Source: Bacillota bacterium (lineage in GTDB: Bacteria; Bacillota; UBA994). From it: a DNA stretch of 64,000 bases. Positions 4,648 through 26,976 of this stretch are shown here, one piece after another. Under the pieces are notes generated by a model, which saw only the letters and a program-made list of their open reading frames with translations, ran no database searches and was not told the DNA's origin. The stretch is from assembly GCA_018333655.1 (NCBI GenBank), contig JAGXTJ010000055.1, forward strand, positions 169,721 through 233,720, read 5' to 3'. How positions within the stretch are numbered: position 1 is the stretch's first letter; each line of letters starts with the position of its first letter. Both the position numbers and the translations under genes were made by a program.

Positions 4648-4793
4648 GGGTACGCCGGAATACCGATCTGTAGTACGCCTAGATGATCTCCGCCGTTCTT
4701 GGCATGCCCAGAACTGGATTTAAAGGCGATCCAATATGACTTTTCTCCGCTGTATAGTTGCGCGTAAACTAGTTACTCTAAGGAGCAAACATC

Positions 4794-7700
4794 ATGCGAA
4801 TGCCGGAGTTCTTCGACAATGTGAGTAAGACTGTAAGAGACGACTTGCTGGTTACAATTAAGAAGGGCGACAAGCTGTCCGTAGCGGCGGCCTGTTTCTC
4901 GATCTACGCCTATCAAACCCTCAAGAAACAGCTTGATGGCATTGATGAGCTGCGGTTTATTTTTACTTCGCCGACATTTCTGCAAGAGAAAACGCCTAGA
5001 GAAAAGCGCGAGTTCTACATACCCCGCCGCGACCGCGAGCGCTCCCTCTACGGTACAGACTTCGAAGTAAGGCTGCGCAACGAACTGACCCAAAGAGCCA
5101 TCGCCCGCGAATGCGCAGCTTGGATCCGCAAAAAAGTGCAATTCCGCTCTAACCAGACAAGCGGCTATATCAGTGGTTTTATGAGCGTGAACGGAGAGAT
5201 CACCACGACGTATACGCCCCTCCACGGGTTTACCACCGCTGACATCGGGTGCGAGCGGGGCAACAATATCATTAACCCCGTCAGCAAGTTTGATTCGTCG
5301 CATGCTAATGGTTACCTCAGCCTGTTCAACCACATATGGAATGACACCAACCTACTGCGTGACGTGACCGAGCAGGTCATCGACAGCATCACCGCCGCTT
5401 ACAAGGAAAACGCGCCGGAGTTAATCTACTTCGTGGCGATATACCATATATTCAACGAATTTTTGGCAGACGTTTCTGAGGATACGCTGCCAAACGAGGC
5501 TACCGGCTTCAAAGACAGTAAGATCTGGCACAAGCTCTATGCCTTTCAAAAGGATGCTGCCCTGGCTATAATCAACAAGCTCGAGTCCTACAGTGGGTGC
5601 ATCCTTGCCGATAGCGTCGGCCTCGGCAAAACATTCACCGCGCTTGCCGTCATCAAATATTACGAGAACCGCAACCGCTCCGTCCTCGTGCTGTGCCCCA
5701 AGAAGCTATCGGACAACTGGAACACCTTTAAGGGCAACTATGTCAACAACCCCGTCGCCCCCGACCGCCTGAGGTATGACGTTCTTTACCATACAGACCT
5801 TTCGCGGGAGCGCGGCAAATCCAACGGGCTGGATTTAGACAGGCTTAACTGGGGCAACTATGACCTTGTGGTCATCGATGAGTCACATAACTTTAGAAAC
5901 GGCGGCGACTTTTATGGGGAAGACCGCCGCGAGAACCGTTACCTGCGCTTGCTGAACCGTGTCATCCGCGCAGGCGTAAAGACAAAGGTCTTAATGCTTT
6001 CGGCGACCCCAGTCAACAATCGCTTTATCGACTTGCGCAATCAGCTAGAGCTCGCCTATGAGGGCGAGGCGAGTCGTATCCATGAAAAGCTGGGGACAAA
6101 ACAAACCCTAGATGAAATTTTCCGCAATGCCCAAAAGGCCTTCAATCAATGGAGCAAGCTCGACGAGGGCCATCGCACCACTGACGCGCTGTTGCGAGCG
6201 CTAGACTTTGACTTCTTCACGCTTCTCGACAGTGTGACCATTGCCCGCTCCCGCAAGCACATCGTAGATCATTACGATATGAGCGAGATTGGCGCCTTCC
6301 CTGAGCGACTAAAGCCCCTCTCCTTGCGCCCGCGCCTTAGTGATTTACCTAGCGCCATAAATTACAACGAAATCTATGACCAGCTGATGAATTTGAACTT
6401 ATCGGTGTACATCCCGACTAACTTCATTTTTCCGAGCCAACTCGCGAAGTATGTCGACACCTCGCTAAATATTAACCGGGCGGGGCGCGAAATGGGCATT
6501 CGTCGTTTAATGAGCATCAACCTCTTGAAACGCCTAGAGAGCTCCGTAGAGTCCTTCCGCTTGACACTCGGGCGCGTCAAAAAACTGATTGACGATACCC
6601 TTGCCGAGATAGACGCCTTCACCCGTGGGGGCGGCTCGGTTGTAAAGTGCCAGGAACTGCTTGGCGACGAGGCCGACTTTGATGAAGATGACCGCAACAC
6701 CGAGTACTTCGCTGCCCAGCACAGCCTCAAAATTAACCTCGCCGATATGGACTACAAAACTTGGCGCGATAGGCTCGCCGCGGATGCCGAAACGCTCGAG
6801 CTACTTAAATCGATGATCGACGATATTACGCCTCGACACGACACCAAGCTGCAGACCCTACTCGGGCAAATCGAGAGCAAGCTGACAAACCCCCTCAATG
6901 AGAATAACCGCAAAATCCTTATCTTTTCGGCCTTCTCCGACACGGCGGAGTACCTTTACGCCAATGTCAGCGCCTTCGTTAAGTCAAAGTTCGGGCTCGA
7001 CACGGCCCTGATTACCGGCAACGTAGACGGCAAGACAACGATTAAGGGGCAGCGGGCAGCGCTTAACGAGGTGCTGACCTTGTTCTCCCCGATTTCAAAA
7101 GATAAACATCTGCTTATGCCACACAGTCGCGACGACATCGCCGTGCTAATCGCCACGGACTGCATCTCAGAAGGCCAAAATTTGCAGGATTGTGATTACT
7201 GCATCAACTACGATATTCACTGGAACCCCGTGCGCATTATTCAGCGGTTTGGGCGAATCGACCGTATCGGCAGCCGCAATGCCGTTATTCAGCTTGTCAA
7301 TTTCTGGCCTGACCTGGATTTAGATGAGTATCTTGCCCTCAAAGGGCGGGTTGAAACAAGGATGCGAATTTCCGTAATGACCGCCACCGGCGATGACGAC
7401 CTTATCAACACCGAGGAAAAAGGTGACCTTGAATACCGCAAGGCACAACTACAGCAACTTCAAGAAAAAGTCATGGACATTGAGGATATACAATCGGGCA
7501 TCTCCATTATGGACTTGGGGCTGAACGAGTTTAGGCTGGACCTACTGGCCTACGTTAAACGCGTCGGCAATATGGACACCCTGCCCTTAGGTCTGCACGC
7601 CGTTGTGCCTGCCTCAGCAGACTGCCCTCCGGGCGTAATATTCGTCCTTAAGAACCGCAATAACAGCGTAAACCGCGATATGCAGAATCGCCTGCACCCC

Positions 7701-8027
7701 TTTTACATGGTCTATATGGGCACAGCAGGCGACGTCATCTGTGACCACCTTTCGCCTAAGAAATTGCTCGATAGATTCCGCGATCTGTGCAAAGACAAGT
7801 CGACGCCCGTGGTGGATGTTTGCCGCACCTTCAACGCCGAAACCAAGGACGGGCGCGACATGCGGCACATTTCTTCGCTACTGACGGCTGCGATTAAATC
7901 AATTATCGAAGTAAAAGACGAAAGCGACCTCGACAGCCTCTTTCGCCCCGGCGGCACGTCCGCCTTACATACCACCATCAGCGGACTAGACGACTTTGAG
8001 ATGATATGCTTCTTAGTGGTGAGGTGA
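4794..8027 (+). CDS. SNF2-family helicase with an uncharacterised N-terminal region of about 230 aa
   Basis: Motif I ADSVGLGKTFTA, motif II DLVVIDESHNFRN, motif III LMLSATPVNN, helicase-C ATDCISEGQNLQ, motif VI HWNPVRIIQRFGRIDRIGS. AAGGAG SD lies about 10 nt upstream of the ATG. Confidence 0.9.
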   Translation: MRMPEFFDNVSKTVRDDLLVTIKKGDKLSVAAACFSIYAYQTLKKQLDGIDELRFIFTSPTFLQEKTPREKREFYIPRRDRERSLYGTDFEVRLRNELTQRAIARECAAWIRKKVQFRSNQTSGYISGFMSVNGEITTTYTPLHGFTTADIGCERGNNIINPVSKFDSSHANGYLSLFNHIWNDTNLLRDVTEQVIDSITAAYKENAPELIYFVAIYHIFNEFLADVSEDTLPNEATGFKDSKIWHKLYAFQKDAALAIINKLESYSGCILADSVGLGKTFTALAVIKYYENRNRSVLVLCPKKLSDNWNTFKGNYVNNPVAPDRLRYDVLYHTDLSRERGKSNGLDLDRLNWGNYDLVVIDESHNFRNGGDFYGEDRRENRYLRLLNRVIRAGVKTKVLMLSATPVNNRFIDLRNQLELAYEGEASRIHEKLGTKQTLDEIFRNAQKAFNQWSKLDEGHRTTDALLRALDFDFFTLLDSVTIARSRKHIVDHYDMSEIGAFPERLKPLSLRPRLSDLPSAINYNEIYDQLMNLNLSVYIPTNFIFPSQLAKYVDTSLNINRAGREMGIRRLMSINLLKRLESSVESFRLTLGRVKKLIDDTLAEIDAFTRGGGSVVKCQELLGDEADFDEDDRNTEYFAAQHSLKINLADMDYKTWRDRLAADAETLELLKSMIDDITPRHDTKLQTLLGQIESKLTNPLNENNRKILIFSAFSDTAEYLYANVSAFVKSKFGLDTALITGNVDGKTTIKGQRAALNEVLTLFSPISKDKHLLMPHSRDDIAVLIATDCISEGQNLQDCDYCINYDIHWNPVRIIQRFGRIDRIGSRNAVIQLVNFWPDLDLDEYLALKGRVETRMRISVMTATGDDDLINTEEKGDLEYRKAQLQQLQEKVMDIEDIQSGISIMDLGLNEFRLDLLAYVKRVGNMDTLPLGLHAVVPASADCPPGVIFVLKNRNNSVNRDMQNRLHPFYMVYMGTAGDVICDHLSPKKLLDRFRDLCKDKSTPVVDVCRTFNAETKDGRDMRHISSLLTAAIKSIIEVKDESDLDSLFRPGGTSALHTTISGLDDFEMICFLVVR

Positions 8028-8031
8028 CGCT

Positions 8032-8643
8032 ATGTTAGAGCTACCCCGTTCAACTGAGGTGAACCGCCGTGTGCCGAAAGAAAAGCTCTACGCCCACACA
8101 ACCCTAACCACAGAGGTGCGCGACCTAGTGAAAGACCAGGTAGAATCTGTCGTCTGGCGCAACAAACTGGCGGAGAATACCGCTGGCATCGCCACCGGCG
8201 AAACAGTGAAAGAGCTCCAAGTTTTTGCGGTAACCCTGCGTCAGCGTGGGTTAGATAAACGCGTCCTGCAGGTCATCGCCAAGGCCATACCCTACAAGAT
8301 ACTGTTTGTGCTCATTTTTGGTGACGAAGCACAAGCGTGGATCGAAGTGGCCGGCACGTTTTACCACACCGCATGGCTCGCAGTCGACAGTCTGCCGCTG
8401 AAGTTCACGGGGCTTAATCTAGACGCCGTCTATGAGAACTTAGCCCGACAGGTAGCGGGCGGTAAGCTCGGCGAAGCCGGCAACATCGCCGCAGCCGTAG
8501 CCCGTGACAAACAAAGGCAAAAACTCGAACGCGCCATTGCCGCCTTACAGAAGAAATCGCTGCGCGAAAAGCAATTCAACAGACAAGTCGAACTAAACGA
8601 CGAGCTGAAACGACTGCGAAAAGAATTGGCGGGGCTAGGATGA
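8032..8643 (+). CDS. DUF4391-like protein
   Basis: 203 aa, 4 nt downstream of the SNF2 stop. The N-terminal pattern (VPKEKLY..., VESVVWRNKL, ELQVFAVTL..., IPYKILFVL) matches my memory of DUF4391, which is typically found next to SNF2 helicase and methyltransferase genes. Confidence 0.65.
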   Translation: MLELPRSTEVNRRVPKEKLYAHTTLTTEVRDLVKDQVESVVWRNKLAENTAGIATGETVKELQVFAVTLRQRGLDKRVLQVIAKAIPYKILFVLIFGDEAQAWIEVAGTFYHTAWLAVDSLPLKFTGLNLDAVYENLARQVAGGKLGEAGNIAAAVARDKQRQKLERAIAALQKKSLREKQFNRQVELNDELKRLRKELAGLG

Positions 8644-8761
8644 GTGCCTAACGAATACCAGCAGCACTCTCGCCCGTAAAGTCAGCTTCTAAGCCACGCA
8701 GGTATGGCAGTTAGCGCAGCCTATAGTTGCTAGACTGCCCTCATAAAGGAGGAGTAAACCC

Positions 8762-10726
8762 ATGTCTATTAAAATGAAATTCGAAACACCAGACCTTACC
8801 GCCGCGAACGTGGCGAAAATCGCCGCACTGTTTCCCGGGGTGGTTACCGAGGGCAAGGTTAATATTGATCTGCTACGCACCATGCTCGGCGATGACGTGC
8901 ACGGCGACGAAGCCTACGAGTTTACATGGGTGGGTAAGCGCGCCGCCATTGCCGAAGCAGGGCGGCCAGTTCGCAAAACCCTCCGCCCCTGCGTGGAGGA
9001 GAGTAAGGACTGGGACACGACCGAGAATCTTTACATAGAGGGGGACAACCTCGATGTATTGAAATTACTGCAAGAAAGCTACCTCGGCAAGATCAAAATG
9101 TGCTATATCGACCCTCCGTATAACACAGGGAAGGACAGCTTTTTATACCGTGATAAATTCACTATGGACGCGGATGAATACGATGAAGCTGTTGAAATGT
9201 ATGACGAAGAAGGCATGAAAAACTTTCGTGAAAATGTAAAGACAAACCCTCGTTATCATTCCGACTGGTGTACATCCATATATCCTGTATTGGTGTTGGC
9301 CCGAAACATCCTATCAGATGACGGGATAATCCTTATTAATATGGATGAAAATGAAATTATCAATCTCCAAAAACTCTGTGCGGAGGTTTTCGGAGAGTCT
9401 AACGATTTAGGGACAATTATTTGGGATAAGAGAAACCCCAAAGGCGACGCGAAGGGCATTTCATATCAACACGAATACATTGTTGCATACGCCAAGAATA
9501 AGCTGTCATTTGTGGAAAAATGCAAAATGCAACGCCCCAAAAAAAATGCCGCGGCAATTATTGCAAAGGCAAATCAAGTATTTAAGAAGGTAGGAGCTAA
9601 ATACACTCTTGAAGAAGCAAACCGCGAATTTGCATCGTGGGTTTCTGCACAAGATGATTTTAGTGGTGGCGAGAAAGCATATAACCGCATCGACCAAAAC
9701 GGAGATGTGTATAGGCCAGTTTCAATGGCATGGCCAAACAAGAAAAAGGCTCCCGACGATTACTTTATTCCCCTAATACACCCAATAACAAAAAAGCCGT
9801 GTCCTCTTCCAGAGCGTGGTTGGCGCAATCCCTCTGCTACAATGAATGAATTGTTGCGTGAAGGTTTAATTCTGTTTGGTAAAGACGAAACAACTCAACC
9901 TAACAGAAAATATTTATTAAAAGAGAATATGTATGAAAATATTCCATCGCTACTTTATTATGGAGGAAGCGATACAGACTTGCTTGCTGAACTGGAGATT
10001 CCTTTCGACACCCCAAAGGTTGTCAGCATAGTAAAGGAACATATACAGTCTTTTACTGCTGATAGTGATATTGTGTTAGATTTTTATTCCGGCTCCGCCA
10101 CCACTGCCCATGCGGTGATGCAACTGAACGCCGAGGACGGCGGCAAGCGCAAATTCATTATGGTGCAATTACCGGAGCTTTGCGCACCGGACAGCGAAGC
10201 GGCGAAAGCGGGCTACGCCAATATTTGCGAAATCGGCAAAGAGCGCATACGCCGGGCGGGTGACAAAATCAAAGCTGAAGTTGGCTTGACCGCCCAAAAC
10301 CTAGATATCGGCTTCCGCGTCCTAAAAGTCGACGATACTAACATGACCGATATCTACTATGCCGCCAGCGACTACACTCAAGAGTTATTGTTTCAAGTAG
10401 AAAACAACATTAAGCCCGACCGCACAGATATGGATTTGCTCTTTGCCTGCCTCTTAGACTGGGGGCTGCTACTTTCTCTGCCGCACACGCAGGAGCAAAT
10501 TGATGGCTTCACTGTTCATACCTACAAAGGCGGGGACCTAGTAGCCTGTTTTGAGGCGGGTATTAGTGAAAACGCCGTCCGTGAGATCGCCAGCCGTGAA
10601 ATAGCCGACCGCCAGCCGCGGCGCGTCGTTTTCCGAGACTCAGGCTTCGGCAGCTCGCCGGATAAAATAAACGTGTTTGAGATTTTTAAGCTGCTCGCGC
10701 CGAATACGACTGTCAGGGTGATCTAG
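8762..10726 (+). CDS. Site-specific DNA methyltransferase, beta-class N6-adenine/N4-cytosine (Type III Mod-like)
   Basis: Catalytic motif IV CYIDPPYNTG sits N-terminal to SAM motif I VLDFYSGSATTAHA (beta-class order). SD AAAGGAGGAG precedes the ATG. Confidence 0.9.
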   Translation: MSIKMKFETPDLTAANVAKIAALFPGVVTEGKVNIDLLRTMLGDDVHGDEAYEFTWVGKRAAIAEAGRPVRKTLRPCVEESKDWDTTENLYIEGDNLDVLKLLQESYLGKIKMCYIDPPYNTGKDSFLYRDKFTMDADEYDEAVEMYDEEGMKNFRENVKTNPRYHSDWCTSIYPVLVLARNILSDDGIILINMDENEIINLQKLCAEVFGESNDLGTIIWDKRNPKGDAKGISYQHEYIVAYAKNKLSFVEKCKMQRPKKNAAAIIAKANQVFKKVGAKYTLEEANREFASWVSAQDDFSGGEKAYNRIDQNGDVYRPVSMAWPNKKKAPDDYFIPLIHPITKKPCPLPERGWRNPSATMNELLREGLILFGKDETTQPNRKYLLKENMYENIPSLLYYGGSDTDLLAELEIPFDTPKVVSIVKEHIQSFTADSDIVLDFYSGSATTAHAVMQLNAEDGGKRKFIMVQLPELCAPDSEAAKAGYANICEIGKERIRRAGDKIKAEVGLTAQNLDIGFRVLKVDDTNMTDIYYAASDYTQELLFQVENNIKPDRTDMDLLFACLLDWGLLLSLPHTQEQIDGFTVHTYKGGDLVACFEAGISENAVREIASREIADRQPRRVVFRDSGFGSSPDKINVFEIFKLLAPNTTVRVI

Positions 10727-10739
10727 GAGGTGACGATGA

Positions 10740-13700
10740 ATGAAGCTGCAATTTAGGCATCAGGCTTTTCAGGCGGACGCGGCAAGGGCGGTCTGCGATG
10801 TGTTTGCGGGCCAGCCCTTTCACACGCCGACCTACCTCGTAGACCCCGGCCTAGGGCAAATCAAGATGGAAGCTGACCAGGCCTTCACGGGCTTTAACAA
10901 CGCGCCTATCGCCCTAGGCGACGCTCAGATTCTAGAGAATATACGCGCCATACAGCGCGCTGGCCAAATCAAGCCGTCCGAGGCACTTGAAGGTCGCTAC
11001 AACCTGACTATCGAGATGGAGACTGGCGTGGGCAAGACCTACACCTATATCAAGACCATGTATGAGCTCAACAAGCGGTACGGCTGGAGCAAATTCGTCA
11101 TTGTCGTGCCGAGCGTCGCTATCCGCGAGGGGGTATATAAGTCGTTCCAAATAACCGAGGATCATTTTGCCGCAGACTACGGCACTAAAATACGCTACTC
11201 CATCTATAATTCGGCGCGATTAACCGAGATTGACCGTTTTGCCTCCGACAGCGCGATTAATGTCATGATCATCAACAGCCAAGCGTTTAATGCCAGAGGC
11301 AAGGACGCGCGGCGTATTTATATGAAGTTAGATGAGTTTCGCTCTCGCCGCCCCATTGACATCTTAGCTAAGACGAACCCTATTCTCATCATCGACGAGC
11401 CGCAGTCGGTAGAGGGCGCGGCTACCAAGGAGCGACTTAAAGAGTTTACTCCGCTGATAACGCTGCGCTATTCGGCGACCCATCGGCCGGACAGCGTCTA
11501 TAATATGGTTTACCGCCTTGACGCGCTCGAAGCCTATAACAAGAGGCTAGTTAAGAAGATTGCCGTTAAGGGCATCTCTGTTTCTGGCAGCACGGCTACC
11601 GAGGGCTATGTCTACCTACAGAGCATCAATCTCTCTAAGGGTAACCCCAAGGCGACGATAGAGTTCGACGTAAAAGGCAAATCCGGCATCCGCAAGGCGG
11701 TAAAAAATGTAGACGAGGGCTACCGTCTGTATGACAACTCCGGCGAGATGGCTCAGTACCAGGACGGTTACACTGTTATGCGGATCGACGGCAGAGATTC
11801 GTCTGTAGAATTCACCAACGGCAAGAAGCTTTTTGTGGGCGACGTCATCGGCTCGGTCAACGAGGAGCAGCTGCGCCGCATTCAGATCAGAGAAACTATC
11901 CTCTCGCATATCGAGCGCGAGCGCGAGTTGTTTGCCAAGGGCATCAAGGTGCTGTCGTTGTTCTTCATTGACGAAGTGGCGAAGTACAAACAGTACGACG
12001 CCCAGGGCCATGCCACCGGCGGTACTTACGCCCAGGTCTTTGCGGAAGAATATAACGAGATTACTGGCTCTATGCAGCTTCGGCTGGAAGATTCCCCAGA
12101 TTATATAACATACCTGGCGGGCATCCCTGTGGAGCGAACACATGCCGGGTATTTCTCTATTGACAAACAGAGCGGTCGCATCATTGATAGCAAGCTCGGA
12201 GACAGAAGGGAACGCACCTCCGACGATGCCGATGCCTACGACCTTATTATGAAGGACAAGGAGCGCCTGCTTGACCGCAGCGAGCCTGTGCGGTTTATCT
12301 TTAGCCACTCTGCCCTGCGCGAGGGTTGGGATAACCCAAATGTGTTCCAAATTTGCACCCTGAAGCAAAGCGGTAGCGATGTACGCAAACGGCAGGAAGT
12401 CGGGCGCGGTTTGCGCTTAGCCGTCAATCAAAGCGGCGTGCGTATGGACGAGAATGTTCTCTCGCGCGATGAGATCCACAACGTCAATGTGCTGACCGTT
12501 ATCGCCAATGAAAGCTACGACAGCTTTGCCAAGGCCTTGCAAGCTGAGCTTGCGGAGGCGGTCTCTGACCGCCCGCGCAAAGTCGAGGCGCAGCTGTTTG
12601 CCGAGAAATTTGGCAAGGTTACCGCTTTGGTAATTTACGAAAGCATGATTAAAAATGGCTATGTCCAGCGCGGTGAATTGACCGAAGCATACTACGAAGC
12701 GCGTAAGAACGGTGCGTTTGAATTGCCAATAGAAGCTGCCGCCCGCGCCACCGAAGTTCGCGCCGTGCTTGATTCCGTCTATGACCCAAGCGCTAACAAA
12801 CCAGTTAATGCCCGCCATAACAATGTCGACATAACCCTAGACAAAAACAAAATGAACAGCCGCGCCTTCCAAGAACTCTGGTCGCGCATCAACAGCAAAA
12901 GCTACTACATCGTCAATTTTGACGAAGCCCAACTGATCGAGAAAGCTATCGCGGGGCTAGACGCTAGGTTGCAAGTGCCCAAGGTTTACGTCAATGTGGA
13001 GCGAGGCGAACAAGCCAGGACCATCGAGTCCAAAGAACAACTGCAGGCAGGCGCGGCATTTGTTCGCGCAGAAATAGTGCGCGAGGAAGCAGCGCCTAGC
13101 ACTACGCTAAAGGCGAATAGCACCGTTCGCTACGATCTTATTGGCAAAATCGTCAACGAAACAGGGCTGACACGAAAAGCGGTAGCCGCAATCTTGATCG
13201 GCCTAAAAAAGTACGTGTTTGACCAGTTCGCCGACAACCCCGAAGAGTTTATTCTGCGTGCCGCCAATATTATCAACGAGGAAAAGGCCACGGCAATTAT
13301 CCAGCATATCACCTACGATAAACTGACCGCCGCATTCGACACCACTATTTTCACCGAGTCCGGCCTAAAAAAAGGCGCCTTGGGCGTAAACGCCATGGCC
13401 GCCAAAAAACATTTATACGACTACGTCCTCTACGACTCCAATATCGAGCGCGACTTTGCCGCCAAACTAGAGGCCCATAGCCAAGAGGTCGAAGTCTATG
13501 TCAAGCTGCCGCGGGGCTTTTACATTAGCACTCCCCTCGGCAAGTACAACCCCGACTGGGCAATCGCCTTCTACAAAGGCACGGTGAAGCACATTTTCTT
13601 TGTCGCGGAAACAAAGGGCACTATGTCCCCCGTGGACATGCGTGAGATTGAACAAACGAAGGCCGACTGCGCCCGCGCGCATTTTCGCGCCATTAGCGGC

Positions 13701-13763
13701 GCCACAGTAATATACGATGTTGTGGATAGCTATGAGCAGTTATGGAATCTGGTGCAGAAATAG
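10740..13763 (+). CDS. Type III restriction enzyme Res subunit (SF2 helicase + C-terminal PD-(D/E)xK nuclease)
   Basis: Helicase motifs METGVGKTYTY, ILIIDEPQSVEG, LRYSATH, REGWDNPNVFQICTL, QEVGRGLRL. C-terminal YNPDWAIAF...FFVAETKG nuclease motif. Starts 13 nt after the MTase stop, with an AGGAGG SD. Confidence 0.9.
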   Translation: MKLQFRHQAFQADAARAVCDVFAGQPFHTPTYLVDPGLGQIKMEADQAFTGFNNAPIALGDAQILENIRAIQRAGQIKPSEALEGRYNLTIEMETGVGKTYTYIKTMYELNKRYGWSKFVIVVPSVAIREGVYKSFQITEDHFAADYGTKIRYSIYNSARLTEIDRFASDSAINVMIINSQAFNARGKDARRIYMKLDEFRSRRPIDILAKTNPILIIDEPQSVEGAATKERLKEFTPLITLRYSATHRPDSVYNMVYRLDALEAYNKRLVKKIAVKGISVSGSTATEGYVYLQSINLSKGNPKATIEFDVKGKSGIRKAVKNVDEGYRLYDNSGEMAQYQDGYTVMRIDGRDSSVEFTNGKKLFVGDVIGSVNEEQLRRIQIRETILSHIERERELFAKGIKVLSLFFIDEVAKYKQYDAQGHATGGTYAQVFAEEYNEITGSMQLRLEDSPDYITYLAGIPVERTHAGYFSIDKQSGRIIDSKLGDRRERTSDDADAYDLIMKDKERLLDRSEPVRFIFSHSALREGWDNPNVFQICTLKQSGSDVRKRQEVGRGLRLAVNQSGVRMDENVLSRDEIHNVNVLTVIANESYDSFAKALQAELAEAVSDRPRKVEAQLFAEKFGKVTALVIYESMIKNGYVQRGELTEAYYEARKNGAFELPIEAAARATEVRAVLDSVYDPSANKPVNARHNNVDITLDKNKMNSRAFQELWSRINSKSYYIVNFDEAQLIEKAIAGLDARLQVPKVYVNVERGEQARTIESKEQLQAGAAFVRAEIVREEAAPSTTLKANSTVRYDLIGKIVNETGLTRKAVAAILIGLKKYVFDQFADNPEEFILRAANIINEEKATAIIQHITYDKLTAAFDTTIFTESGLKKGALGVNAMAAKKHLYDYVLYDSNIERDFAAKLEAHSQEVEVYVKLPRGFYISTPLGKYNPDWAIAFYKGTVKHIFFVAETKGTMSPVDMREIEQTKADCARAHFRAISGATVIYDVVDSYEQLWNLVQK

Positions 13764-13829
13764 ACGCCAAGGCTACGCTAGCCCCGCACCCTGTGGCGCA
13801 GGGAAGAACGCTGCAAGAGAGGTGGCTTT

Positions 13830-16406
13830 ATGCCGCATAGTATTCGAGAGTTGTTAAATGAGTTGCCTGGAGAGGTAGTATACCAACACAGGCTAGCTGC
13901 TCGATCTGCCCTCCTTGATGAAATACCTAGAAATATCCACAGAAAGCTGTATCTCCCCCTACGTCATGAGTTCCCCCAAGGCCTTTATTCCCATCAGACT
14001 AAGGCCATTAGACAAAGCCTGTCAGGTCGACACGTAGCCCTTGCCACGTCAACTGCATCGGGAAAGTCACTTTGTTTCGTTTTGCCCACCCTCGACGCCC
14101 TGTTGAGGGATCCTCAGGCGTGTGCTCTGTTTGTGTACCCACTAAAAGCACTATCTGGCGACCAACTCGAATTGATTACACATTGGGCAGAACGAGTTGG
14201 GCTAACAAGCCAAGTCTTTCGGCTAGATGGCGATATTAAGGGTGAAGAGCGAAATCAGGCCCTAGCACGCGGAAGATTATTTATCTGCACTCCTGATATA
14301 CTTCACACCACCATCCTCAGACGCAACCTTGATGAGCATTACACGCGGATCTTTAAAAACCTTGCCTATGTAGTTCTGGATGAGTGCCATGTTTATGATG
14401 GGGTTTTTGGCAGTCATATGGCGCTCGTTGTTCGGCGTCTCAGGCAGGTGTGCAGGAACCATGGCAGCTCACCTCGATTTATCGTAGCAAGCGCTACCAT
14501 CGGACAACCGCATGAACACGTCAGCAACCTCATCGGGACAGATGCAGTCGACCTCATCACCGAGGACATGAACGGCAGTCCCACGGCAGAACGGGATTAC
14601 TTCATGGTGAACCCCGCCAACACTGAGAGTTCATACGGATACATCATGAAGCTCACCCGGGAGCTTGTTAAGCGAGTCACCCAATTTGTGGTATTCTGCA
14701 ACTCGCGCAAGGAAGTCGAACAATACGCTTTGAGTTTACGTCAGGATTCCCCGAAAATGCATGATAGCATCATGCCCTACCGGTCGGGATACGAGTCTTC
14801 GGATCGATCTGCGATAGAGCGGGCACTCCGGCAGAAAACCCTCCTCGGCGTTTTCTCCACCTCTGCCCTCGAAATGGGCATCGACCTACCTAATCTTGAT
14901 ATCTGCGTTATGGTCGGGTTACCCAACAGCCAAGTCAGCCTCATTCAGCGTGCTGGTCGCGTAGGCAGGCGGCGCCCCGGAGCTGTAATCATTTGTGGCA
15001 AGGAAACCCCGTTTGATGAGTATTACTTCAAAAGGCCCGCTGATCTTTTTAAGCGGGCCCTAGAACAAACCACCGTCAATCTGTCAAACCCGAATCTTCT
15101 CATTTCACACTATGCCTGTGCGAGGATTGAAGGGGGAGATTTTGAGAATCCTCGTCTGGACCCCGATATTTTTGGCCGAGAGTTTATAAATATAGCCAAA
15201 CAAGTGCATCAGTTTGATTACGCGCAGGACATTCTCTATGACCAGGAGCCGCACTTTAAGATTAGCATCAGATCGATTGATGACCCGGTCTATAAACTTG
15301 GCTACGGCCACAGCACCATAGAAATACCCTTAGGGCAAATAACCTACTCTAGATTGATGCGCGAGGCCTACCCTGGTGGAATATACCTGCACCTAGGAAC
15401 CCGCTATCGGGTAAAAAAGGTCATCTTCGGCAAACGCGAAGTGCTTGTCGACCGGCGTTGCCCCTTTGCTTCCACAAAACCTAGGCTTGAATCATGGGTT
15501 AAACCTAAAACAACACTTCGCAAAGGCGCGGTGCGATCATGGCCAAGCATTGACGTAACAGAATCCACCCTCAGCATAACGGAAAAGATCACGGGATACC
15601 TAGAGAAGTCAGCCTCAGAAGAGAGAGAGGTGGTGTATAAGCAGCCTCTGATGCGGTACTTCGTCACTTCTGGCATAGTCATAAAAATAAAAGGGCTCTC
15701 TAGACTGACGCATGGATCTATAGTGGGCTTCGCTAATGCTATCGAAAACTCATACCCCATTGTCTACCGCTGCGCTCGCGCCGACATTGGGAGCTATGCC
15801 TGGAGCAAGGAAGAGCACGAAGGACATATTTACCTGTATGATGCCACTCCTGGCGGACTGGGCATCACCTCATCTGCCCTCGCCCATTTTGAGAAGCTCG
15901 TCGAGACTGCACTTGATGGCGTGATCAGTTGCGAATGCAGCCTAGACGAAGCCGCCTCTATCCATGGCTGTATAAAATGCGTTAAGTCCAATATGTGGCT
16001 GCGCTACCCGAACAGCACCCGGGCAGATACTTTATTTCTTCTAGAAGAAATTCTCAGGGTAGTCACGCAATCGGCAGCGGAGATTACTTTGCCGCAAGAT
16101 CGTAGACCTCCGTCTCCATCGCAGCGGAACAAGTATGGCCGAACAGTGTTAGCTAACGGATCCGTAGTTTACACTGGTGCGGGCCACGAGGCAGTAGTGA
16201 TAAGCAGTACCCCCATGGAGTCTACTATAAGTCCTGGGGAGAGGTTGTATCTAGTTCAAGGCGCCATGGGGGAATCTAAATCATTTATAGGCAGCAAGCT
16301 AACGCTGATACAGGGAATGGTTGAACTCTGGTGCGTCAACTGCGGTGCCGATTCCATCTCCATGGAAGATGCAGTATGTCCGATTTGTGCAGAAAAGCTG
16401 ATTTAA
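13830..16406 (+). CDS. DEAD/DEAH-box helicase with DUF1998 (MrfA/YprA-like), paralog 1, with extra C-terminal beta-rich + zinc-ribbon module
   Basis: Helicase motifs LYSHQTKA, ATSTASGKSLCF, VVLDECHVYDG, ASATIG, QRAGRVGRR. DUF1998 signature YLYDATPGGLGITS and Cys cluster CECS...GCIKC. Terminal CVNC...CPIC. Confidence 0.85.
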   Translation: MPHSIRELLNELPGEVVYQHRLAARSALLDEIPRNIHRKLYLPLRHEFPQGLYSHQTKAIRQSLSGRHVALATSTASGKSLCFVLPTLDALLRDPQACALFVYPLKALSGDQLELITHWAERVGLTSQVFRLDGDIKGEERNQALARGRLFICTPDILHTTILRRNLDEHYTRIFKNLAYVVLDECHVYDGVFGSHMALVVRRLRQVCRNHGSSPRFIVASATIGQPHEHVSNLIGTDAVDLITEDMNGSPTAERDYFMVNPANTESSYGYIMKLTRELVKRVTQFVVFCNSRKEVEQYALSLRQDSPKMHDSIMPYRSGYESSDRSAIERALRQKTLLGVFSTSALEMGIDLPNLDICVMVGLPNSQVSLIQRAGRVGRRRPGAVIICGKETPFDEYYFKRPADLFKRALEQTTVNLSNPNLLISHYACARIEGGDFENPRLDPDIFGREFINIAKQVHQFDYAQDILYDQEPHFKISIRSIDDPVYKLGYGHSTIEIPLGQITYSRLMREAYPGGIYLHLGTRYRVKKVIFGKREVLVDRRCPFASTKPRLESWVKPKTTLRKGAVRSWPSIDVTESTLSITEKITGYLEKSASEEREVVYKQPLMRYFVTSGIVIKIKGLSRLTHGSIVGFANAIENSYPIVYRCARADIGSYAWSKEEHEGHIYLYDATPGGLGITSSALAHFEKLVETALDGVISCECSLDEAASIHGCIKCVKSNMWLRYPNSTRADTLFLLEEILRVVTQSAAEITLPQDRRPPSPSQRNKYGRTVLANGSVVYTGAGHEAVVISSTPMESTISPGERLYLVQGAMGESKSFIGSKLTLIQGMVELWCVNCGADSISMEDAVCPICAEKLI

Positions 16407-16415
16407 GGGAGGAAG

Positions 16416-19016
16416 ATGGCGATGGATGAAGTAATCCGAATCATCGGAGGGTCGGGCTTTACAGTAGCGCATGAACATCTGGCACACCCCCGGGCATCGC
16501 GCATGTTGCCTTGCCCTGAAGTGCATCATCTTATCGCCGAATATGTGGCGAAAACGTATTCGGGCCAGCTCTTCAGGCACCAGGCCCTAGCAGTACAAGC
16601 TGCCCTAAAGGGGCAGAATGTCGCCCTAGTTACAGGTACTGCCTCAGGTAAGACCCTGAGCTTTGCCATCCCAGTATTTGACGAGCTGCTTAGAAACAAG
16701 CAGTCAAGAGCCATGTTCTTTTATCCCACCAAAGCCCTAGCAGGCGATCAACTCAAGTCCCTGCAAGCGCTTGCGGCAGCTTTAGGAATGCCGGGAACTG
16801 TTTTTAGATTCGATGGAGACACCTCCACCGATGACCGCAAACGGGCGCTTACCAGTGGCCGGCTACTCCTGTGCACGCCAGATGTATTGCATACGACAAT
16901 GCTTAAACGCCATAAAGAAACTCTTTACCACGAGTTCTTCGCCAACCTGAGATCCATTGTGCTAGACGAATGCCACATTTACAGTGGCGCTTTCGGTAGC
17001 AACATGGCCTTTGTGCTCAGGCGTCTACGGCAGGTGTGTCAGTCCAAAAACTCACCCCTCCAGTGGTTCGCCGCCAGCGCCACCAGCTCAGACTCGGGCA
17101 ACCACCTCAAACTACTCACCTCGGAAACGTTCACTATCATCGACGAAGCGGAGAACGGCGCTCCCTCCGGAGGCAGAAGATACATCCTTGCTAATTGTGT
17201 GAATGAAGCTCAGGTTTCTTCCGTTAATCATCTCATTGCCACCTTGGCCACCGAAAAGAAGAAATTTATCGTCTTTTGTCAGTCGCGCCGACTTACTGAG
17301 CAGTTCTACCACGAACTGACCTCGGCTCACCCAGCAATTATGGGCACAGTGATGCCATATCGCTCGGGCTACGAACCAACAGATCGACAAGACATAGAAG
17401 ACTCCATACGAGACAACCGCCTGGTAGGCGTCATATCGACATCAGCACTTGAACTAGGCGTTGATCTGCCGGAGATGGAATATTGCATTCTCATTGGCCT
17501 GCCCACGACGGCAATTAGCCTTATGCAGCGCACTGGTCGCGTCGGTAGGAATCCGGGCCAGCAGGGCAAGGTTATCATTTTCCCCTCAGACAATGCTGTG
17601 GATGACTACTATCGTCGACACCCAGACAAGATCTACACACGCCCCTTGGAGAAACTAGTTCTACACATCGATAACCGTCAGTTGATCCTCTCGCATTTCG
17701 CTTGCGCCAGATATGAGAGTCAAAGTTTCGACAGCCCAGACCTCGACAGCAATATTTTTGGGCCAGATTTCGTAGAGTTGGCGTCTACTGTAAACAACCT
17801 CGATACCGTCGATGACATCCTAGTCAGCAGTGACCCACACTCAATGTTGGGGATTCGCGGAATCGGCGACCCCACGTATGAAATATACACTAGCGGTGGC
17901 GAAAAGCGCCTAGGCACTATAACTTGGTCACAAATACTTAGAGAGGCCTATCCTAAAGCTGTATACAGGCACATGGGCGAAGCCTACAGAGTAGAGCGCA
18001 TTCTATCCCGCGATTGCGTAGTCAAGGTCAAAAAAGAGAATCGCAACCATAGTACTTCCCCGGTAGGACACGTTTTTGTACGCGAACGCACTGGCGCGGG
18101 GGCAACGGTCTATAGGCGTGCAACATGGATAGACAAGGTTGAGCTCCTCCACACCAACATGGTTGCAACAACAGTAACAAGTGGCTTTAGAGAAAAGATT
18201 AACGGGCGATGGGTGCAAGAGAAGTATCAAGCACCTCTGCAACGTCGGGTTTTCTCTGAAGGTGTCTGGTTCAAACTGCTACCGGGCTTTGGCGAGGTCA
18301 CTCGGTCAGGTCTCAACACCTTTGTTCACGCGCTCTCCAGCGCATATGCCATATACATGCCGTGTGACACTGCTGAGTTAGCCACTCATTCTATGCGCAA
18401 ACCAGATGGCAGTTCTTGCATGTATGTATTTGATACCACTTCGGGGGGACTCGGTATCTCAGCAGGCCTCTTCGACTGCTTTCAACAGCTACTGCCTATG
18501 GTAGAGGAGAGGCTATCCACCTGTGGCCACTGCGATACCGACCGCTTCAATAGTGGTTGCCCTGCGTGCGTCCAAGGACCCCGTTGGTATGACGACAATG
18601 ACCACCTAAATAAGAGCGAGGCGCTTGCGATCCTGCGAAATCTCTGCAAAGTACTGTCCGCAGCAAATCCCGATATCATGGTCTCCTCTGCTTATCGTCA
18701 TCGTGAACAAGGTGGGCTAACCTCCATTTCTGACATGGGGAACGCCGAGATGCCCCAGAAATTCGGAGCCCCCGTTTATAATCGCGGCGCCGTCGTTCGC
18801 CTACCTTCTGGACTCGAAGGGACTGTATGTGAGGCATTCGACGAGGCCGGCCAAATGACCTATGTGCTTGAGCTGCCAAATGGGCGCCAAATCCGTATTC
18901 GCGACATGGGTCTCGTGCTCGTCTCTGGGGATCACCACCTGCGATGTGGTTGCTGCGGAAGTGAGTGTGCCCATGATACCCGCTACTGTCCAAACTGCAT
19001 GGCAGAAGTCGGATAG
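16416..19016 (+). CDS. DEAD/DEAH-box helicase with DUF1998 (MrfA/YprA-like), paralog 2, with extra C-terminal beta-rich + zinc-ribbon module
   Basis: Helicase motifs LFRHQALA, VTGTASGKTLSF, IVLDECHIYSG, ASATSS, QRTGRVGRN. DUF1998 signature YVFDTTSGGLGISAG and Cys cluster CGHC...GCPAC. Terminal CGCC...CPNC. Starts 9 nt after paralog 1, with a GGGAGG SD. Confidence 0.85.
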   Translation: MAMDEVIRIIGGSGFTVAHEHLAHPRASRMLPCPEVHHLIAEYVAKTYSGQLFRHQALAVQAALKGQNVALVTGTASGKTLSFAIPVFDELLRNKQSRAMFFYPTKALAGDQLKSLQALAAALGMPGTVFRFDGDTSTDDRKRALTSGRLLLCTPDVLHTTMLKRHKETLYHEFFANLRSIVLDECHIYSGAFGSNMAFVLRRLRQVCQSKNSPLQWFAASATSSDSGNHLKLLTSETFTIIDEAENGAPSGGRRYILANCVNEAQVSSVNHLIATLATEKKKFIVFCQSRRLTEQFYHELTSAHPAIMGTVMPYRSGYEPTDRQDIEDSIRDNRLVGVISTSALELGVDLPEMEYCILIGLPTTAISLMQRTGRVGRNPGQQGKVIIFPSDNAVDDYYRRHPDKIYTRPLEKLVLHIDNRQLILSHFACARYESQSFDSPDLDSNIFGPDFVELASTVNNLDTVDDILVSSDPHSMLGIRGIGDPTYEIYTSGGEKRLGTITWSQILREAYPKAVYRHMGEAYRVERILSRDCVVKVKKENRNHSTSPVGHVFVRERTGAGATVYRRATWIDKVELLHTNMVATTVTSGFREKINGRWVQEKYQAPLQRRVFSEGVWFKLLPGFGEVTRSGLNTFVHALSSAYAIYMPCDTAELATHSMRKPDGSSCMYVFDTTSGGLGISAGLFDCFQQLLPMVEERLSTCGHCDTDRFNSGCPACVQGPRWYDDNDHLNKSEALAILRNLCKVLSAANPDIMVSSAYRHREQGGLTSISDMGNAEMPQKFGAPVYNRGAVVRLPSGLEGTVCEAFDEAGQMTYVLELPNGRQIRIRDMGLVLVSGDHHLRCGCCGSECAHDTRYCPNCMAEVG

Positions 19017-19038
19017 AACTATTTAGCAAGAAGCTGCG

Positions 19039-21816
19039 CTACACCGATGGCGCATGGCACGCTGACGCCGTGATTATCTGCAGCAGTCGACTTTCCAAAC
19101 GCTCCTTTTCTCCGCTCGCATTAGTGGCAAATCGCAAAAGAGGTAAATCAATCTGCGCCAAAATCCTATCTTTGACTTGATCCCGCTCCAATTGCTTGGC
19201 AACTTGTTGGTGATATCTAAAGCCGTCCACTTCAATTGCCAAAACGGGCTCTTTATCCATTCTGTTATAAATGAGGAAATCCACATGAGAACAAGGGTGC
19301 GCAGCAAATCCTTGTTCTCGCTCATTTAGCCCCGCCATGTCCTTTACAATCATGGCCAACGGAACATGCAGCGCGACCTTAAACGAGGCAAATTCTTGCT
19401 TTGCCAGCACTTCCTCAACAAGCTCGTTAAATAAATTTTCTGACTGAAATTGCGATACCTTCTTTGTCTTGATAGCCCTCAGCTGCAGTAGCTCTGCATA
19501 CTCACTATATAGCATATCGAATACGGAGGCCTTCGTGCTTTCAACCGCTTGTCCACCCGCACTATTGTAAGTCATGTAGCGTATTAAATCTCCCAGATGT
19601 GTCCCGTGTTGCCGCGATATGTTGTCGGACGTGACGACTATAAACTTTTTCACCGCCCGCGAAACTGCAACATTTATCAAGTTGGGTTGATCAATAAAGT
19701 CGTTGACCTCATTAGACACCGTGGAAAAAACAATGATTTGTTTTTCTCGTCCTTGAAATTTATGGATTGTGTCTGCTTCTATCCCCTCAACAGCTACCAT
19801 TTTTCTTAACTCAGCAACATGGTCACGATAAGGCGCGATAAGGCCGACCTCGCTGCCGCCACATGACTCCACAGCGCTATCTCTTAACACTTCATCGCGT
19901 ACAACTTCGATCTGCCGAAGATTGTACCAACCAGTCCCTATCCTGCGTGCATGATTTCCTGGTGCTGTTCGATAGACCTGAAGCGCTTTCTCATCGCTAG
20001 CCGCATTAGTCATGACTATTAACTCATTATTGTAAAATTTCTCATTGCAATACCGGATTATCTGGGGTTGACAGCGGTAATGCTCTCGCAACAGCGTCCG
20101 GGCTACCCGTTGCTCGTACAGTGCCACCAAAGATGAAAGAATACTGTGCTTCGAAAAGTCATAAGCGCTACTTATCTGCAAAACTTGCCGCAGCTGATTG
20201 CTCTTGTGCTCCACATCCTGCGATACGATTTGCGGCAATTGTTTTAAATCCCCGACAATAACGGCCTTCTTGCAACAGGACATGGCTAAGGCGGCAGTGG
20301 CTAAATCGACCTGCGAAGCTTCATCTATTATAAGATAGTCGAAGATGAAGTTCTCTGCCATGCTGTTCCGAATGGAATGCGTTGTGCTTAAAATTACAGG
20401 ATAATGCTCCACGAAGGCGTGAAATTGAGCCTTGTACTCCTTAAGAAAAAACTCCCGCCTGCCGCGCTCCCTGTATCGCGTAGACAGGGCGGCACGAAAG
20501 ACGTCTACAGAAAGATTGATCGATTGCTGCATCAGGCTATCAAAATCCGTTGCGCGTAAACGTCCTTCTAATGCAGCGATCTTTTGCTTATGCTCCTGTA
20601 TGGTCCGTTCATAATACAAATGATTTAAGGAATACGTTATGGCGGGCTGCGCCTTCGTCAGTATTGCGAAGTTGTGTATTCCATAATAAAAGAATAGCCT
20701 AGCTCTATTTGGCCAACTCATTAAGCTTCCCTGCTCAATTAATTGGCGATATTCGACTAAAAACTCCAATATATTTCTCCCTAGCCAATGTCTCCGTAGC
20801 GAGAACATTTTAAGGGGAATTAGCTCACCGCCTTGCTCACTCAAAAAATGGCTCTGTTCCGTTTCTAACCTCGCAAGATGCTCTCGCACACTCGCCGATT
20901 CATTGCGTATTTTTAGAAGAGCGGCCACCTCTGGGACAGTTTTGCGAAGTCGATCTGCGCTTGTAGTTAAGTCCTTCTTCGTGCGATCCCAGGCAGACAA
21001 ATCTAGCGCACATCCCGTACTGCCCTCAAAAAAGCGTTTCTGATTTTCTTGATGGCCCAAAGATGCCGCAATGAAGTCATACCCATCTTTTTTTAGTTTC
21101 TCCATCACATTATCTATGGCCGCGTTATTGCTAGAGACCACTGCGACAGTTTGTCCGCGGCACACTGCATTGGCAATTATATTGAGTATGGTCTGTGTTT
21201 TGCCAGTTCCAGGTGGCCCCTCAATGATACTGATGGAATTGTTTAGGGCCTGCTCAACCGCCTTCTTTTGACTCAAGTTAAATCCAAATGGGAAAATGAC
21301 CTCTGAGACGTCTGCCGCTTTTTTTATTTTGGCAGCACTAAGATACGTAGCAAGCACGCTTTTAGGATTTATTCGCCCCATTTTCTGATATTGTTCCCCC
21401 AACAGCGATTGTCCTTGCTCTGTAACATTTAATTGCTGGGCGACTCCTGCAAGATATGTGAAAACTGTGCCCTCTTTTGACGCCGCCACACATATCTCAT
21501 GGTAGCTTACCCGATGGCGCGGTAGACAAGTGGTGGTCCCTTTTGAATTAATGACTCGAACGTATTCGCCAAAGTCGTCGACTCTGACAAGTTGTTCAGC
21601 CGGCACGTCGTCGATGCATACAATTGTGTCTGCTAGGTTGATTGGCTTAGGATTGCTCAGCACACGCACGCGATCCTGTGCATACTCGTATGGCTTGCTG
21701 CTGCCATAAAAAACTACGCGGACCCGCGCGCCAACAAATGTTATCTTTTGCACCTGGGCGCTTTTGTCCTCATATATATCTGTTGTGCTCGACTTTATAA
21801 GAATAAGACGATTCAC
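19039..21816 (-). CDS. SF1 (AAA_11/AAA_12-type) helicase with C-terminal DUF2726-like endonuclease domain
   Basis: Helicase motifs IIEGPPGTGKTQTI, YLIIDEASQV, VGDLKQLPQ, FQGREKQIIVFS, INVAVSRAVKKFIVV. C-terminal signature HVDFLIYNRMDKEPVLAIEVDGFRYH...RDQVKDRIL. Confidence 0.85.
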   Translation of the reverse strand: MNRLILIKSSTTDIYEDKSAQVQKITFVGARVRVVFYGSSKPYEYAQDRVRVLSNPKPINLADTIVCIDDVPAEQLVRVDDFGEYVRVINSKGTTTCLPRHRVSYHEICVAASKEGTVFTYLAGVAQQLNVTEQGQSLLGEQYQKMGRINPKSVLATYLSAAKIKKAADVSEVIFPFGFNLSQKKAVEQALNNSISIIEGPPGTGKTQTILNIIANAVCRGQTVAVVSSNNAAIDNVMEKLKKDGYDFIAASLGHQENQKRFFEGSTGCALDLSAWDRTKKDLTTSADRLRKTVPEVAALLKIRNESASVREHLARLETEQSHFLSEQGGELIPLKMFSLRRHWLGRNILEFLVEYRQLIEQGSLMSWPNRARLFFYYGIHNFAILTKAQPAITYSLNHLYYERTIQEHKQKIAALEGRLRATDFDSLMQQSINLSVDVFRAALSTRYRERGRREFFLKEYKAQFHAFVEHYPVILSTTHSIRNSMAENFIFDYLIIDEASQVDLATAALAMSCCKKAVIVGDLKQLPQIVSQDVEHKSNQLRQVLQISSAYDFSKHSILSSLVALYEQRVARTLLREHYRCQPQIIRYCNEKFYNNELIVMTNAASDEKALQVYRTAPGNHARRIGTGWYNLRQIEVVRDEVLRDSAVESCGGSEVGLIAPYRDHVAELRKMVAVEGIEADTIHKFQGREKQIIVFSTVSNEVNDFIDQPNLINVAVSRAVKKFIVVTSDNISRQHGTHLGDLIRYMTYNSAGGQAVESTKASVFDMLYSEYAELLQLRAIKTKKVSQFQSENLFNELVEEVLAKQEFASFKVALHVPLAMIVKDMAGLNEREQGFAAHPCSHVDFLIYNRMDKEPVLAIEVDGFRYHQQVAKQLERDQVKDRILAQIDLPLLRFATNASGEKERLESRLLQIITASACHAPSV

Positions 21817-21856
21817 TCTGCACCTCGCTCTCCTGTATCCTCCGCGTAATTACGCA

Positions 21857-22552: not shown

Positions 22553-22615
22553 ATCTCCCTTTCAGTCTAAGTTGTAAAAGAACAGGCAGACTCACACCTC
22601 ACATACTGAATGTGT

Positions 22616-23899: not shown

Positions 23900-23914
23900 T
23901 AACATTTTCTGCCA

Positions 23915-26953: not shown

Positions 26954-26976
26954 CAAGCAACAGGCTCCGTCCCTAG
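26954..26976 (+). repeat. Junction motif copy 3
   Basis: CAAGCAACAGGCTCCGTCCCTAG. Its CTA is the stop codon of the DUF4411 gene. Confidence 0.8.

Follow-up and report, generated by a model that had tools for sequence, protein, structure and literature searches.

An SNF2-DUF4391-Mod-Res restriction cassette and a tandem pair of MrfA/YprA-like helicases, very probably two independent modules, adjoin in a Bacillota defence island

We analysed a 64,000-nt stretch of a Bacillota genome (contig JAGXTJ010000055.1, positions 169,721 to 233,720; called the window below), and in it a locus at 4794-19016 that consists of six open reading frames (ORFs) on the plus strand. The first four, referred to here as Module A, encode an SNF2-family ATPase (4794..8027; 1077 aa), a DUF4391 protein (8032..8643; 203 aa), a beta-class N6-adenine methyltransferase of the Type III Mod kind (8762..10726; 654 aa) and a Type III Res that combines a superfamily 2 (SF2) ATPase with a C-terminal PD-(D/E)xK domain (10740..13763; 1007 aa). 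The remaining two, the first genes of Module B, encode a MrfA/YprA-like DEAD-box helicase, Hel1 (13830..16406; 858 aa), and its paralogue Hel2 (16416..19016; 866 aa). A preliminary description made from the sequence alone had read the six genes as one hybrid system that fits neither Type III restriction-modification (R-M) nor DISARM. Our comparative analysis leads to a different reading: the locus is very probably the junction of two independent, separately mobile defence-island modules and not a single hybrid system.

The intergenic gaps across the six ORFs are, in order, 4, 118, 13, 66 and 9 nt, and a purine-rich sequence resembling a Shine-Dalgarno (SD) site precedes each of the six starts; coordinates, gaps and SD sites agree exactly with the preliminary description. 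The ATPase motifs that it had quoted for the SNF2 protein, Res and both paralogues, as well as the DPPY motif of Mod, were all found as quoted, and profile hidden Markov models upheld its domain assignments (SNF2, DUF4391, N6-adenine methyltransferase, Type III Res and two DEAD helicases with DUF1998). The six genes are real and apparently intact.

The SNF2 protein contains the motifs GLGKT at residue 276, DESHNFRN at 362 and QRFGRIDRIGS at 817, and it matches the Pfam families SNF2-rel_dom and Helicase_C. Its N-terminal domain (about 240 aa) is conserved and matches no family; the C-terminal domain has about 200 aa. The best PADLOC model was C3a139 'HKD+Snf2' (4e-120), with an alignment that started only at residue 177. 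The name of this model hints at a PLD/HKD domain hidden in the N-terminus, a candidate that we rejected because neither an HxK motif nor a Pfam PLD match or a PDB profile match was found there. Scanning the N-termini of seven SNF2 homologues for Pfam PLD at E-values up to 1 was also negative, and no PLD/HKD domain was detected among the nine island proteins scanned, in line with the earlier statement that the locus has no PLD gene.

The product of the second gene matches Pfam DUF4391 (4e-50). Its AlphaFold2 model (predicted local distance difference test score, pLDDT, 78.8; predicted template modelling score 0.72) combines an alpha/beta domain with a long helical hairpin at the C-terminal end; the hairpin bears the conserved motif QFNRxVELN. 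Foldseek searches of this model against PDB and BFVD gave nothing better than E=0.02, and a profile search against PDB sequences yielded no significant match; we dismissed as noise some faint matches to endonuclease-like folds, none with a probability above 0.35.

In enzymes of the EcoP15I type, Mod methylates adenine at an asymmetric site, and Mod and Res, joined in a complex, locate and cleave unmethylated DNA at the expense of ATP. The Mod encoded here matches PADLOC MTase_III PDLC03634 (1e-218, residues 4-654) and Pfam N6_N4_Mtase (6e-31), with DPPY at residue 117. Res has the motifs TGVGKTY at 95, IDEPQS at 218 and QEVGRGLRL at 552, and it matches ResIII (1e-13) and, over its full length, PADLOC REase_III PDLC03647 (8e-286); RE_endonuc (1e-32, residues 889-996) confirms the PD-(D/E)xK tail noticed in the preliminary description. 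The two genes lie 13 nt apart on the same strand, and their order is kept in all relatives examined. With EcoP1I, EcoP15I and StyLTI they share the order mod then res, an N6-adenine methyltransferase with DPPY, and a Res with SF2 motifs and PD-(D/E)xK; by their sequences, the two genes encode a genuine Type III pair. Two differences set the locus apart from the classical systems. These consist of two genes, whereas the cassette here and in the relatives sampled has SNF2 and DUF4391 ahead of mod-res, and the full-length match of Res to NCBIfam PRK15483 (StyLTI-type Res; 348 bits) stays under the equivalog cutoff of 564.

The four genes of Module A recur together in distant hosts. DUF4391 was found by tblastn on 56 plasmids (Proteobacteria, Firmicutes, Actinobacteria and one archaeon), and SNF2 proteins 51-55% identical over the full length were found on 110 plasmids from several phyla, with hosts ranging from E. 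coli to Listeria to Mycolicibacterium. Plasmids of E. coli, A. baumannii, E. faecium, L. monocytogenes and Methanomethylovorans share one gene order, in which a helicase-related gene is followed by DUF4391, a site-specific methyltransferase and a DEAD/DEAH protein (Type III Res); in Listeria, the "hypothetical" protein at the second position is a divergent DUF4391. We also collected 80 metagenome loci anchored on Res (49-79% identity), of which 35 had at least 7.5 kb of upstream sequence, 46 at least 3 kb of downstream sequence and 28 at least 6 kb downstream. SNF2 and DUF4391 were both found upstream in 28 of the 35. Among 19 IMG/VR loci anchored on DUF4391, SNF2 was immediately upstream in every case, and Mod and Res were downstream in all ten with enough sequence. 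Altogether, the hosts of the cassette include Bacillota, Pseudomonadota, Actinomycetota and archaea, and it is carried by plasmids as well as by predicted proviral contigs. Its version in E. coli is rare (10 of 5,426 complete genomes) and mostly plasmid-borne. Judged by this conservation of gene content and order, SNF2, DUF4391, Mod and Res (4794-13763) are one widespread cassette. We found no functional description of it in the searchable literature, including a review of lactococcal Abi systems and a paper on BREX diversity; for DUF4391, the search returned an enrichment table and an apparent typo for DUF7941, and nothing else.

Several relatives of the cassette show variations. The nineteen IMG/VR contigs (L182-L200), which carry SNF2-DUF4391(-Mod-Res), are classed as viral or proviral, and the cassette may often ride on prophages or other integrated elements. 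In some relatives, an extra ORF of about 240-550 aa lies between DUF4391 and Mod, or one of 359 aa between Mod and Res (L093 13056-13793, L104, L098, L135 and L169); the cassette thus has optional fifth components. On the Listeria monocytogenes plasmid NZ_CP041212.1 (L181 12747-14644), the annotation divides Mod into two ORFs, of 140 aa and 475 aa, with the start of the N6_N4_Mtase domain in the first, which could be a frameshift or a phase-variable Mod.

Hel1 and Hel2 are 34% identical over their full length (BLASTP, 1e-172), and both match DEAD, Helicase_C and MZB. They contain TASGKS and TASGKT, respectively, at residue 75, LDECH at 183, and QRAGRVGR and QRTGRVGR at 373 and 371. The MZB/DUF1998 domain lies within the helicase (residues 634-718 of Hel1 and 637-719 of Hel2), so that the fusion of DUF1998 to a helicase in two paralogous genes had been recognized correctly. 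The best PDB sequence match of Hel1 was MrfA (6znp; 4e-91, residues 4-704 versus 7-723), and MrfA was also the top Foldseek match (6e-56, template modelling score 0.74-0.77) of the AlphaFold2 model of Hel1 (pLDDT 86.2). DruE was matched only weakly by Hel1, and DrmA was not among the listed sequence or fold matches. The DEAD (54-226) and Helicase_C (275-381) domains of Hel1 are nearly contiguous, and the protein is colinear with the 751-residue MrfA: with MrfA/YprA of B. subtilis (PDB 6ZNP) it shares RecA1, RecA2, the OB/connector and the DUF1998 four-cysteine cluster, whose cysteines are invariant. It differs from MrfA/YprA in that two diverged paralogues stand in a fixed tandem, that no MrfB accompanies them, that they lie in a defence island in an indel-polymorphic block, and that this family has about 140 additional C-terminal residues that form a helix, a small beta domain and a zinc ribbon. 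Against NCBIfam TIGR03817 (actinobacterial DECH helicase), Hel1 and Hel2 scored 388 and 373 bits, with an equivalog cutoff of 874. The genomic relatives of the TIGR03817 type (at least 80) are single-copy, about 30% identical and actinobacterial or archaeal, with neither a tandem nor R-M neighbours among the matches listed; we used them as an outgroup only.

A tandem of a Hel1-type gene followed by a Hel2-type gene was found in eight other loci (L001, L003, L005, L006, L007, L174, L177 and L180), which belong to Thermincola potens, to metagenome-assembled genomes of Desulfotomaculaceae, Desulfitobacterium and Sporomusaceae, and to four metagenomic lineages. A tblastn comparison of five of these loci put the identity of the first gene to Hel1 at 41-49% and that of the second gene to Hel2 at 51-57%. 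Walker A, DExH, SAT, motif VI, the DUF1998 four-cysteine cluster and a second, C-terminal four-cysteine ribbon are kept in every member of both lineages. Defence genes predominate around the pair (BREX type 1, WYL/PafC regulators, GmrSD, AbiE and HEPN/DUF499/DUF1156), accompanied by SF1 (superfamily 1) helicases and nitrate-reductase genes; in L006 and L177 the pair sits amid metabolic genes. We found no functional description of a tandem MrfA-like pair in the searchable literature.

Two further observations concern individual pair loci. In Thermincola (L001 8477-9780) and Desulfitobacterium (L005 123-1400), a WYL/PafC-type regulator and an ORF of about 82 aa precede the pair, which suggests that the pair is normally under its own inducible regulation, missing in the window. 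One helicase gene was called truncated in each of two other loci, namely at L174 10001-11923 (640 aa, without DEAD) and at L180 13010-14251 (413 aa, without MZB); this may reflect decay of the pair in some lineages or wrong gene calls.

How often the cassette and the pair occur together had been named beforehand as a check on the hybrid proposal, and the outcome spoke against it. No match to Hel1 or Hel2 longer than 150 aa was present in the 80 Res-anchored loci, including the 46 and 28 with at least 3 and 6 kb of downstream sequence, and none was present in the 19 DUF4391-anchored loci. A close relative of the pair was not found on plasmids either, despite the 56 plasmids with DUF4391: plasmid matches were at most 31% identical and ended near residue 720. 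Conversely, only one of the eight other pair loci, that of Thermincola, has cassette genes nearby. The comparative loci support the distinction, already drawn in the preliminary description, between the R-M-like block of genes 1-4 and the helicase pair; they contradict the idea that a single methyl mark licenses all translocases, as the pair is not co-inherited with the cassette.

The boundary between the two modules is also visible as an insertion-deletion polymorphism. A metagenomic contig from a near-identical relative (L144) is 99.7% identical to window positions 12126-13803, a stretch that starts inside Res and ends 40 nt beyond the stop codon of this gene. After 39 unrelated bases it resumes at window positions 21861-22565 with 94.5% identity, inside a DUF2161 gene. 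This relative does not have the 8,057 bp in between (13804..21860; an 8.06 kb presence/absence block), which contain Hel1, Hel2 and a convergent gene on the minus strand (19039..21816; 925 aa) for an Upf1-like SF1 helicase with a nuclease-like DUF2726 domain, a probable companion of the pair in Module B. The haplotype with the block is represented by the window and by two independent SRA assemblies (L008 and L009). Neither a target-site duplication nor terminal inverted repeats were found at the junctions.

The SF1-DUF2726 protein matches Pfam AAA_11, AAA_12 and DUF2726, shows a weak match to REase_MTES_1575 and has a negligible GajB score. An orthologue, 46% identical, follows the pair co-directionally in L007, and a gene for NERD plus an SF1 helicase follows it in L174; with the window, genes of the SF1-DUF2726 or NERD-SF1 kind adjoin the pair in three of the nine pair loci. 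Homologues without the pair were also observed downstream of Res in five of the 46 cassette loci (L103, L107, L123, L127 and L166), in L103 and L123 directly adjoining it. Genes of this type seem to go with the cassette as well as with the pair.

A number of points weigh against the separation of the two modules. The pair was sampled in nine loci, including the window, and the indel evidence comes from a single metagenomic contig of 3.2 kb. The Res- and DUF4391-anchored loci are akin to one another and hence not independent samples. Thermincola (L001) combines both gene sets, with SNF2, DUF4391 and a methyltransferase within 10 kb of the pair; its gene order differs, as the pair stands upstream and four unrelated genes lie between it and SNF2/DUF4391. 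In the window, the gap between Res and Hel1 is only 66 nt and has no convincing terminator, and the inserted block begins 26 nt before the Hel1 start codon. Because so little of the block precedes Hel1, read-through transcription from Mod-Res into Hel1 and Hel2 is likely; the two helicases are probably co-transcribed with Mod-Res in this strain, that is, co-expressed even if they did not co-evolve with it. When the whole island is read together, its parts list (an SNF2 helicase, a methyltransferase, YprA-family helicases and an SF1 helicase) resembles ARMADA type II. Finally, synergy has been described in E. coli between neighbouring YprA-family systems, namely ARMADA II with Druantia III and Zorya II with Druantia III (PMC12458937).

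Some of these points fit a reading that is compatible with two modules: independent in origin, they might cooperate here and give additive or synergistic protection, for example if the pair and the SF1-DUF2726 protein processed ends or single-stranded DNA left by Type III cleavage. The shared transcription expected from the 26 nt upstream of Hel1, the synergy of adjacent systems in E. coli and the presence of SF1-DUF2726 homologues near Res as well as near the pair are consistent with this. Defence genes, however, cluster generically, and co-localization of the two modules recurs only once, in Thermincola; we regard cooperation as possible but doubtful.

It is also conceivable that the pair serves DNA repair as MrfA/YprA does, acting on crosslinks or adducts rather than against phages, and that its place beside the R-M cassette is incidental. 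The closest characterized relative is indeed the repair helicase MrfA. The YprA family comprises a repair branch and a defence branch, the latter marked by large insertions (Bell et al. 2025, PMC12458937), and by that description Hel1 is without the insertions of the defence branch and colinear with MrfA; the metabolic surroundings of L006 and L177 also fit a repair function. What makes this reading unlikely is the pattern of occurrence. The pair is patchily distributed and indel-polymorphic, its neighbours are mostly defence genes, the housekeeping single-copy relatives are never in tandem among the matches listed, and no MrfB-like DEDDh exonuclease was found among the neighbours of the nine pair loci inspected. 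We lean, with some reserve, towards a role of Module B in defence. No tandem of two compact helicases appears in the account of Bell et al. 2025 (PMC12458937), and the part of their supplementary files that was accessible does not list the pair of Thermincola or Desulfitobacterium.

In the model libraries used, no named system accounts for the whole locus, in line with the preliminary description: PADLOC and NCBIfam named only Mod and Res, as Type III. Class 1 DISARM consists of DrmD, DrmMI, DrmA, DrmB and DrmC, and the likeness to it (an SNF2 helicase, an adenine methyltransferase and an SF2 helicase with DUF1998) is at the superfamily level only. The SNF2 protein scored 153.5 bits against NCBIfam DISARM_DrmD, with a cutoff of 610 and with only the C-terminal helicase lobe aligned. 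Hel1 scored 41.1 against a cutoff of 999 and 29.8 against 950 with the NCBIfam DrmA models, in partial alignments, and its PADLOC DrmA match (8e-22) was partial too. DrmB is a separate DUF1998 protein in DISARM, whereas the domain is fused to the helicase in Hel1 and Hel2; the methyltransferase here is Mod-type, no PLD protein corresponding to DrmC was found, and the SNF2 and methyltransferase genes are not evolutionarily linked to the DUF1998 helicases. We therefore ruled out membership in DISARM on DrmA, DrmB, DrmC and DrmD and on co-inheritance as one operon. Of the statement that the locus fits neither Type III R-M nor DISARM, the second half stands, since all component models fail, and the first half does not hold for Mod and Res, which have the features of Type III enzymes.

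ARMADA type II is made up of ArmA (SNF2), ArmB (a PglX-like methyltransferase), ArmC (YprA-like) and ArmD (UvrD-like) (PMC12458937). Compared by the published description, its YprA homologue, like that of Druantia, has a BrxA-like insertion after RecA1 and a beta-barrel in RecA2, for which Hel1 has no room. Furthermore, its methyltransferase is PglX-like, whereas that of the window is a Mod-type N6_N4_Mtase, and its SF1 protein is GajB/UvrD with RelE, whereas that of the window is Upf1-like with DUF2726. The window also contains a Type III Res, and its components are not co-inherited. BRIGADE likewise encodes two YprA-family helicases together; it has been reported from halophilic archaea only and includes 7-deazaguanine biosynthesis genes, PLD nucleases and ARMADA- or Dpd-like helicases (PMC12458937), and neither these components nor such a host apply here.

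That all six genes form one hybrid system, in which the Mod mark would license Res, SNF2 and both DUF1998 helicases as effectors acting in parallel, is highly improbable: co-directional genes with short gaps and SD sites, ATPase motifs that are all intact, the probable read-through from Res and the combination of both gene sets in Thermincola speak for it, but none of about 100 cassette loci and no plasmid has the helicase pair, seven of the eight other pair loci are without the cassette, the gene order in Thermincola differs, a near-identical strain is without the helicase block, and every DISARM component model stays under its cutoff.

With two independent modules as the preferred reading, we propose the following mechanism. 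In Module A, Mod would methylate adenine at its recognition site, and Res in complex with Mod would cut unmethylated DNA, as expected from homology. Because their genes are strictly linked to mod-res, SNF2 and DUF4391 presumably work with Mod-Res. DUF4391 might serve as an adaptor that uses its helical hairpin to tether the SNF2 motor, which would translocate on double-stranded DNA, to the Mod-Res machinery or to the target DNA; we put this forward tentatively, with less than even confidence. SNF2 helicases are paired with methyltransferases in DISARM, BREX type 3 and ARMADA, and by analogy a putative SNF2-DUF4391 complex may act as a second motor on the same unmethylated DNA. A putative methyl mark that serves two motors, Res and SNF2, is plausible within the four-gene cassette.

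Module B (13830-19016, probably extending to 21816) would be an ancient tandem MrfA/YprA-like pair with both members probably active. Hel1 and Hel2 may form a heteromer of two 3'-5' MrfA-like translocases, to which nuclease activity would be supplied in trans; here, the SF1-DUF2726 protein is the candidate. The module appears to travel with the SF1-DUF2726 gene as one 8 kb block that was inserted downstream of Res, and it would neither need Module A nor read its methyl mark.

The promoters of the cassette could be assigned only tentatively. The -10-like element TATAGTTGC occurs at 4753..4761 (plus strand), 41 nt upstream of the SNF2 start codon, and again at 8722..8730 (plus strand), 40 nt upstream of the Mod start codon. 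Three copies are present in the window versus 0.5 expected by chance, two of them at these equivalent positions. They may be twin promoters that split the cassette into an SNF2-DUF4391 and a Mod-Res transcript. Conservation of TATAGTTGC was not found in the relatives, many of which are without any spacer between DUF4391 and Mod, and a consensus scan for promoters and terminators in the window gave scores no better than those of shuffled sequence.

The locus is part of a chromosomal defence island that occupies the first ~22 kb of the window; the remainder encodes citrate lyase, aconitase, TctA and ABC transporters. The closest homologues were found in anaerobic Bacillota, e.g. Desulfosporosinus, Dethiobacter, Desulfotomaculaceae and Thermincola. 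Scans of the window found neither tRNA genes nor Rfam families, and a search for near-identical DNA in E. coli genomes and plasmids brought up no useful match to the locus.

Upstream of the locus, at 226-4647 on the plus strand, a gene encodes a 1473 aa SF1 helicase (AAA_11/AAA_12) whose C-terminal part is an MTES_1575/DUF559 nuclease domain. It shows a partial match to PADLOC PDC-S37 (8e-72) and stays far under the cutoffs of NCBIfam ProA and Hhe. Located 146 nt before SNF2 on the same strand, it is not kept beside the cassette in any relative and is probably a separate single-gene defence candidate. Downstream of the locus, the window contains two copies of a DUF2161 PD-(D/E)xK gene with about 87% DNA identity, at 21857-22552 and 37172-38032, both on the minus strand. 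Other segments of 100-300 nt are repeated at 23902-24201, 29138-29437 and 38060-38359, as well as at 24439-24756 and 38695-38934. Because of the DUF2161 copies and these repeats, we consider the region of 21.8-24.8 kb to be partly duplicated at 37.2-38.9 kb. A SUKH/SMI1 immunity-type gene at 29154-29630 overlaps one repeat copy, and at 26973-28648 on the minus strand an overlapping gene pair encodes DUF4411 (7e-54) and Peptidase_M78 (ImmA/IrrE-like), an arrangement that looks like a toxin-antitoxin or defence pair.

To summarize, this finding is much less exotic than the hybrid proposal; what is left is a four-gene Type III variant conserved across phyla and a mobile tandem helicase module. 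The cassette might represent a distinct four-component Type III-like restriction class with a requirement for SNF2 and DUF4391, and, separately, the tandem pair, often with a DUF2726 or NERD SF1 helicase, a new methylation-independent defence module from the YprA repair branch; we offer this double assignment as a speculative one, with odds rather against it. If it is true, the cassette would be the Type III counterpart of DISARM, BREX-3 and ARMADA in its combination of SNF2 with a methyltransferase. Since the cassette is present on E. coli plasmids, what an SNF2-type motor adds to a Type III enzyme is testable in a model host. A compact MrfA-like pair that acts as a mobile defence-island module would mean that the part played by the YprA family in defence is not confined to the large, insertion-rich helicases of DISARM, Druantia and ARMADA.

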